Shown here in pieces: positions 4,147 to 4,322 of a stretch of DNA of 64,000 nt. The stretch lies in NCBI GenBank assembly GCA_031268315.1, contig JAIRXK010000021.1:8859-72858 (forward strand). The letters are read 5' to 3'. The notes beneath the pieces were generated by a model. The model did not search any database and was not told the origin of the DNA. It saw only the letters and a program-made list of their open reading frames with translations. The first letter of the stretch is position 1, and the number at the start of each line of letters is the position of its first letter. Source of the stretch: Puniceicoccales bacterium. GTDB taxonomy: Bacteria; Verrucomicrobiota; Verrucomicrobiia; Opitutales; JAIRLM01. Position numbers and translations under genes: made by a program.

Positions 4147-4322
4147 CTCAAAAAATGCCCCCTCGTTGAGACTGTAATTGGAAAATTTAAGAACTTTTTG
4201 GGGCAAAATTATCGCACTTCCGTTCGCCTAGAGCCGCATTCTCAGCCTTTATGCGAATATTTTGGCCGTAAATTTAAGGTTCTAAAATCGGTGAAGGAAT
4301 TTAGCAATTCGCGTTTCACTAA
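4147..4322. repeat. intergenic repeat family, copy A (longest copy)
   Basis: Aligns by eye with 48557-48702 (copy B) and 49554-49656 (copy C). The shared core is CAAAATTATCGCRCTTYCRTTCGCCTAGAGCCRCATTC. The 5' part (aaaaatgccccctcgttgagactg) matches copy C. The 3' part (ggccgtaaatttaagg..cggtgaagraatt..gcgattcgcg) matches copy B. Confidence 0.75.

Follow-up and report, generated by a model that had tools for sequence, protein, structure and literature searches.

The ERIC (or IRU) elements of Enterobacteriaceae are imperfect palindromes of about 127 bp that lie in transcribed intergenic regions, often in the 3' flanks of genes, and the BOX elements of Streptococcus pneumoniae are modular boxA-boxB(n)-boxC repeats. 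MITEs, such as the Correia elements of Neisseria and the Rickettsia palindromic elements, sometimes supply the last codons and the stop of a gene. REP/BIME consist of a strongly palindromic unit of 20-40 nt, usually clustered and accompanied by a RAYT transposase. Parallels among regulatory RNAs are 3'ETS-leuZ and the 3'UTR-derived sRNAs of enterobacteria. We analysed 64 kb of DNA from an uncultured Puniceicoccales (Verrucomicrobiota) bacterium, this whole stretch being referred to below as the window, which carries three copies (A, B and C) of an intergenic repeat of about 140-180 nt each, all in plus orientation. The original prediction had considered a REP/MITE-like element, a small RNA or a protein-binding site; the observations are best matched by a dispersed intergenic repeat of a generic kind.

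With ERIC/IRU the element shares its size class, its intergenic and non-coding nature, the lack of an encoded protein, internal inverted repeats that would form a long imperfect hairpin, and a location in 3' flanks. It differs from them in having no sequence relationship, in belonging to another phylum, in being present as three copies in the window and in its much weaker palindromy, the MFE being that of shuffled sequences. Like BOX it is modular, with an optional internal block (M2, which C lacks) and with terminal modules that are partly complementary (the 5' half of the core with M4). Unlike BOX, to which it has no sequence similarity, its variable block is bordered by short direct repeats and is present zero or one times. 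The likeness to MITEs lies in its being a short, non-autonomous intergenic repeat, one copy of which (B) provides a gene, ORF280, with its final codons and stop. However, its inverted repeats are internal, no target-site duplication is visible and no partner transposase was found in the 26 ORFs scanned, so that a MITE in the strict sense is not upheld. A REP in the strict sense fails as well, since the unit measures 140-180 nt and is not a palindrome of 20-40 nt, its fold equals that of shuffles and the 26 ORFs contain no Y1-transposase domain. Finally, the element recalls multi-copy sRNAs and sRNAs derived from a tRNA 3'ETS or a 3'UTR by its length (130-180 nt), its conserved internal segment with variable flanks and the position of two copies 3' of a tRNA or a coding sequence; it departs from them in having no conserved promoter or convincing terminator, in its conflicting strand signals and in being known from sequence alone. 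What is found is thus a non-coding unit of roughly 100-200 nt, placed at unrelated intergenic sites and endowed with internal complementarity, as in ERIC/BOX-like elements, which form a kind and not a homologous family. We tentatively interpret it, with a confidence somewhat short of even, as a new sequence family of this known kind (low-copy, dispersed, non-coding intergenic repeats of the ERIC/BOX/Correia type), seen in one 64-kb window.

Copies, modules and coding potential

The three copies and their parts are as follows.

4139-4317, plus orientation: copy A, the most complete, in the spacer between genes P1 and P2 (nhmmer E 2e-58; covariance model 123 bits; alignments).
About 48530-48697, plus orientation: copy B, with homology clear from 48556 (nhmmer E 3e-56; covariance model 134 bits; module identities; frames).
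49548-49688, plus orientation: copy C, bordered directly on its right by the 3' end of tRNA-Leu(GAG) (nhmmer E 2e-43; covariance model 105 bits).
4205-4241, also 48587-48623 and 49588-49624: most conserved core, 37 nt.
4139-4179: module M1 of copy A.
4180-4202: module M2 of copy A (23 nt).
4203-4272: core of copy A.
4273-4317: module M4 of copy A.

Three copies in the same orientation had been predicted, and they were indeed recovered: the core AAAATTATCGCRCTTYCRTTCGCCTAGAGCCRCATTC is found on the plus strand at 4205, 48587 and 49588, and a degenerate form of the 37-mer matches exactly three times in the window against 0 expected from 100 dinucleotide shuffles. They lie at or close to the predicted locations, the alignments giving the somewhat larger intervals listed above. 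A profile HMM made from A, B and C revealed no fourth copy in the window, the next-best nhmmer match having an E-value of 0.09. A covariance model run over the whole window with filters off likewise returned the three copies only, at 105-134 bits, everything else scoring below 15 bits. The sequences flanking A, B and C are unrelated to one another by nhmmer.

The element is modular and consists of M1, an optional block of 23-25 nt (M2), a highly conserved core and M4. M1, of about 40 nt, is 79% identical between A and C and degenerate in B (about 35%). M2 occurs in A and B and is missing from C as a 23-nt block; direct AAAATT repeats border this indel, and AAAATTATCG is present twice in B, 26 nt apart. 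The core, of about 70 nt, is 81-86% identical in every pair of copies, pairwise identity rising to 89-95% in its central 37 nt. In M4, of about 45 nt, A and B share 78% identity, and C has diverged (about 52%).

The element is non-coding and its conservation is at the nucleotide level. As originally proposed, the 68-aa ORF of copy A is not conserved in frame: B carries a CAA to TAA stop and a 1-nt indel, and C is shifted by the missing 23-nt block. No start-to-stop ORF common to the three copies exists in the six frames of both strands. The 68-aa ORF itself found no word-sharing candidate among 5.8 billion clusters and no phmmer match among 1.84 billion representatives. The coding hypothesis was rejected on these two grounds, the missing homologue and the six-frame comparison. 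A type I toxin-antitoxin repeat (Sib/Ibs- or Ldr-like) was rejected too, as the copies have in common no small hydrophobic ORF that begins with a start codon.

A related shorter core, AATCG[CT]AAAATTATG, had been reported from the P3/P4 and P4/P5 spacers. It is present there, at 7976 and 10924, but its kinship to the element is limited to 13-18 nt. These spacers are each other's paralogues. When aligned locally with the element they share just TGCNNATCGYAAAATTAT with it, over 13-18 nt, or, with gaps allowed, 27 of 30 positions in the case of B and P4/P5; among 24 comparisons the lowest p-value before correction is 0.007. Neither site was among the nhmmer matches at E-values up to 100, and the covariance model gave 12.4 bits on 10921-10953 (minus strand, E 1.4). 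A diverged copy of the element was therefore rejected, as HMM, covariance model and local alignment leave only the 13-18-nt motif in common, and the short core possibly represents a short shared motif. Within the P4/P5 spacer, the imperfect palindrome ATCGTAAAATTATGCGAT (10925-10942) matches the ATCGCAAAATT motif on both strands.

Pairing potential and transcription signals

The structures and signals considered are the following.

4204-4264, plus strand, copy A: stem of the original prediction; one compensatory pair, broken in C.
4211-4308, copy-A coordinates: alternative long imperfect hairpin of about 100 nt (RNAalifold; pair counts).
4211-4215/4304-4308, 4218-4228/4290-4299, 4229-4235/4264-4270 and 4236-4241/4255-4260, copy A: helices of the alternative hairpin.
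48557-48567 and 48680-48690, copy B: arms of a perfect 11-bp inverted repeat, ATCGCAAAATT, which also appears in the MFE structures of B.
4147-4172, minus strand, M1 of copy A: weak terminator-like hairpin (4172-4157) with a T-run in the following ten bases.

The arms of the predicted stem lie where they had been placed, at 4204-4216/4252-4264 in A and 48586-48599/48634-48647 in B. They pair at 11 of 13 positions in A and at 12 of 14 in B (two of them G-T), with a 2x2 internal mismatch in the stem, and one pair is truly compensatory, A4216-T4252 in A being replaced by G-C in B. In C, which had been said to lack the 3' partner, the stem is largely broken, with only about 8 of 14 positions paired. 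Pairing in A and B is confirmed, but conservation of the stem is unsupported: 173 of 500 shuffles reach the observed value and the MFE z-score is about 0.

The alternative long hairpin is kept in all three copies and is the more consistent of the two structures, with 92.3% of its 78 cells paired (35-45% in slid controls) against 73.8% for the predicted stem, the hairpin having been derived from the same three sequences on which its pairing was counted. Two of its pairs show three pair types each (82/160, CG/UA/UG; 98/123, GU/AU/GC). By our own count, one-sided changes in its paired columns preserve pairing in 4 of 10 cases, near the neutral expectation. The column-shuffle control, in which 173-208 of 500 shuffles reach the observed values, is uninformative with three sequences, and neither structure is statistically supported because of this sample size. 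Nested with these structures, the perfect inverted repeat of B has a counterpart in A at 4176-4187/4298-4309, where 10 of 12 positions match and one pair is T-A in A versus C-G in B.

The MFE of the element is that of shuffled sequences on both strands (z from -1.4 to +0.95), and the consensus folds are about equally good, at -17.4 kcal/mol for the minus strand versus -15.0 kcal/mol for the plus strand. Helices 1 and 2 of the alternative hairpin are predicted on the minus strand too, whose consensus has a hairpin domain at the 5' end and a linker rich in A and U; in A and C these are joined by a hairpin with a U-run. The signals for strand conflict: the stems of B and C contain G-T pairs, which can form on the plus strand only, and the M1 hairpin works on the minus strand only.

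No promoter-like site was found within A, B or C, and none is conserved among the copies; a single one lies directly upstream of C on the plus strand, with no counterpart at A or B. The weak terminator-like site in M1 of A has a homologue in C (hairpin 49578-49563, tail to 49553) and is missing from B. The two hairpins reach only -5.1 and -8.0 kcal/mol, and terminator-like matches occur in the window at the rate expected by chance (25 versus 23.6 and 23 versus 19.4). This sole terminator-like feature lies on the strand opposite to that assumed by the original prediction.

Genomic context and searches beyond the window

Two neighbouring genes define the surroundings of copies B and C.

48665-49507, minus strand: ORF280, an ORFan that has no Pfam match and contains a long hydrophobic segment.
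49689-49773, minus strand: tRNA-Leu(GAG), detected by ARAGORN and Rfam (49 bits), with copy C as its immediate 3' flank.

B and C each lie in the 3' flank of a minus-strand gene (ORF280 and tRNA-Leu, respectively), in the same relative orientation. They form direct repeats around ORF280, their starts being 1001 nt apart. The last ten codons of ORF280 and its stop (48665-48667) fall in M4 of B; on this strand, copy B stops about 150 nt ahead of a promoter-like site (48376-48348) preceding ORF236. C occupies the gap between the 3' end of tRNA-Leu (49689) and the promoter-like site 49507-49480 in front of ORF280. Immediately to the left of B, a GC-rich patch (48493-48541) stands out from otherwise AT-rich DNA and contains a perfect 9-bp inverted repeat, GGCCGCCGA (48493-48501) and TCGGCGGCC (48533-48541); this patch, which overlaps the degenerate M1 of B, may be a separate small insertion.

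Copy A is located between the plus-strand paralogues P1 and P2, with no minus-strand gene upstream of it. The P1/P2 spacer measures 361 nt and the remaining ones in the P1-P5 array 203-236 nt, an excess of about one element length. A looks like an insertion into a paralogue spacer. Alignment of the spacers of the array in search of an empty site gave no insertion point, the sequences being too divergent outside the promoter block. The array itself (1602-13520) consists of five tandem paralogues on the plus strand with 26-39% amino acid identity, each preceded by a conserved promoter-like block, TTATT(C/T)ATTGAC(T/A)A. P1, P4 and P5 end in tandem repeats rich in proline and glutamine; those of P5 show the greatest regularity, with a period of 33 nt (for example 13114-13420). 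P1 gave weak matches to domains of tyrosine and dual-specificity phosphatases, Y_phosphatase scoring above the Pfam cut-off (23.7 versus 20.9 bits) and DSPc below its own; P2-P5 have no Pfam match.

Other features of the window were noted in passing. Its GC content is a mosaic, the housekeeping stretches (MutS, MnmE, M29 peptidase, RluD-like) being at about 52-53% and those with ORFans and giant genes at 31-43%. Two giant ORFs, of 5234 aa (23961-39665, plus) and 2745 aa (55735-63972, minus), are 50% identical over about 2400 residues, and the latter has no Pfam domain. Four ORFans without Pfam match (47632-48342, minus; 48665-49507, minus; 49790-51943, plus; 17945-18409, plus) each contain a hydrophobic segment of about 50-65 aa that by eye appears two-lobed. 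Such segments recall, in what we take to be a hint of a host-associated lifestyle, the Inc-type membrane proteins of chlamydiae. The intervals 16561-17303 and 18564-19330 are a diverged duplication with an offset of about 2 kb and 70-78% nucleotide identity, and a 179-aa ORF (16823-17362) is 49% identical to the middle of a 468-aa ORF (18361-19767). Three to four 135-nt tandem repeats, 67-85% identical, occupy 21590-22082 within a 732-aa ORF (21359-23557, minus), itself a distant paralogue of the ORFs at 39987-43278.

Searches in other sequences and against known families returned no relative of the element. At gathering thresholds Rfam detected only two tRNAs in the window, and at relaxed E-values the element regions gave sub-threshold chance matches only. 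No match to the element was obtained by blastn against plasmids and phages. The core 19-mer occurs at 2 loci in 185,579 species genomes, 7 times in JGI metagenome contigs and 0 times in viral contigs; all these genome and metagenome matches end after 19-34 nt and appear consistent with chance. The MnmE encoded in the window (NCBI MDR1437931.1) has its best named relatives at 56-58% identity. At the MnmE loci of two relatives (L010 and L011; 58% identity) neither nhmmer nor the covariance model found the element; this is a weak negative because synteny is not conserved there. Nothing relevant to the element was found in the literature on Puniceicoccales endosymbionts.

Several mobile or recombining structures were considered at the three sites. 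In 26 ORFs of the window scanned with Pfam, no transposase, integrase or reverse transcriptase domain was found. Terminal inverted repeats were not found: the arms are internal, and homology between A and C runs 37 nt further left, into M1. Nor did a reading of the flanks show matching short direct repeats indicative of a target-site duplication at the boundaries of A, B and C, which are known only to within a few nt. A tRNA att site was rejected, since C goes no further than the 3' end of the tRNA, nothing tRNA-like is present in A or B, and the scanned ORFs include no integrase. From sequence reading and Pfam scans, an integron attC site was rejected for lack of R'/R'' motifs, and a DGR TR/VR pair for lack of a reverse transcriptase.

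Weighing the explanations

One rival explanation is that the three copies encode sibling or 3'-derived sRNAs of about 130-170 nt, with the 37-nt core as seed or protein-binding region; C would be released on the minus strand from the 3' trailer of tRNA-Leu, and B from the 3' UTR of ORF280. Its appeal lies in the high conservation of the core and in where B and C are placed, immediately 3' of minus-strand genes in both cases. The steep fall from 89-95% identity in the core to far less in its flanks, the two pairs with CG/UA/UG and GU/AU/GC series, and the layout of the minus-strand consensus described above would all suit such RNAs. However, no promoter-like site is present inside the element or conserved among the copies, the M1 hairpin, missing from B, reaches no more than -5 to -8 kcal/mol, and the MFE z-score is about 0. 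The strand evidence is at odds with itself (G-T pairs for plus, M1 hairpin for minus), Rfam gives no match, and the core 19-mer is missing from 185,579 species genomes save two chance matches. We regard the sRNA explanation as unlikely. Its most elaborate version, in which a host-associated-looking bacterium would produce sibling regulatory RNAs (C out of the tRNA-Leu 3' trailer, B out of the untranslated 3' region of an mRNA for an effector-like membrane protein), with the 37-nt seed or protein-binding core held in the long hairpin, is quite improbable. If true, it would provide the first sRNA family for a little-studied lineage and would link tRNA-trailer RNAs to the control of ORFan 'effector' genes.

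The copies could also be neutral relics of local duplication or gene conversion, devoid of function or mobility, whose core would look conserved because they are young or homogenised. The window is full of duplications (P1-P5, the two giant paralogues, a tandem duplication of 2 kb at 16.5-19.3 kb), no more than 1 kb separates B from C, and the preservation of pairing in 4 of 10 one-sided substitutions is about what neutrality predicts. The flanks of the three copies share nothing, however, which excludes a larger duplicated segment. Moreover, the elements are 80-86% identical, against about 30% or no detectable similarity for the neighbouring paralogous proteins, indicating that the gene duplications are far older than the elements or under far less constraint, and conservation is strongly uneven along the element. 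Neutral relics seem to us an unlikely explanation as well. A third proposal sees in the element a DNA-level protein-binding module (sites for a regulator, a nucleoid protein or a recombinase) composed of a GCAAAATT-type motif in direct and inverted copies; B and C, as direct repeats, would permit excision or duplication of ORF280. It accounts for the bracketing of a single gene by B and C, for the occurrence of the motif in both direct and inverted form within the element, for the related 18-mer in the P3/P4 and P4/P5 spacers and for the roughly two-fold enrichment of ATCGCAAAATT in the window (17 occurrences with at most one mismatch against 7.7 expected). Yet most of these motif matches fall within coding sequence, the similarity of the spacers is not significant after multiple-test correction, and a conserved unit of 140-180 nt far exceeds the size of a binding site. 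The scanned ORFs, in addition, contain no recombinase or integrase domain, and the repeats exclude the tRNA 3' end, which att sites usually include. A binding module of this sort appears very improbable.

We return to the dispersed intergenic repeat. Its existence, non-coding nature, modular build, pairing potential and gene contexts are shown by the data, and we infer the mode of spreading, the transcription of the element and its effect on transcripts. Transposition or recombination would have carried DNA copies of the element to intergenic sites; neither terminal inverted repeats nor a target-site duplication nor, in the 26 ORFs scanned, a transposase was found. A long imperfect hairpin, about 100 nt in length, could be closed by its nested inverted repeats. 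B and C, placed after a minus-strand gene and before the next promoter-like site, would most likely be co-transcribed as a 3' trailer or 3' UTR, where the hairpin (in B and C), together with the weak hairpin and U-run (in A and C), may act on 3'-end formation or stability. Such a 3'-trailer role is inapplicable to A because no minus-strand gene lies upstream of it.

On present evidence this is an ordinary-looking low-copy repeat that is new as a sequence family. Should it prove abundant in the full genome, it would be the first dispersed intergenic repeat described for Puniceicoccales and Verrucomicrobiota, and a marker of genome plasticity in a lineage with many ORFan, effector-like genes. 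If its copies are made as discrete RNAs, they would offer an entry point to post-transcriptional regulation in Verrucomicrobiota.
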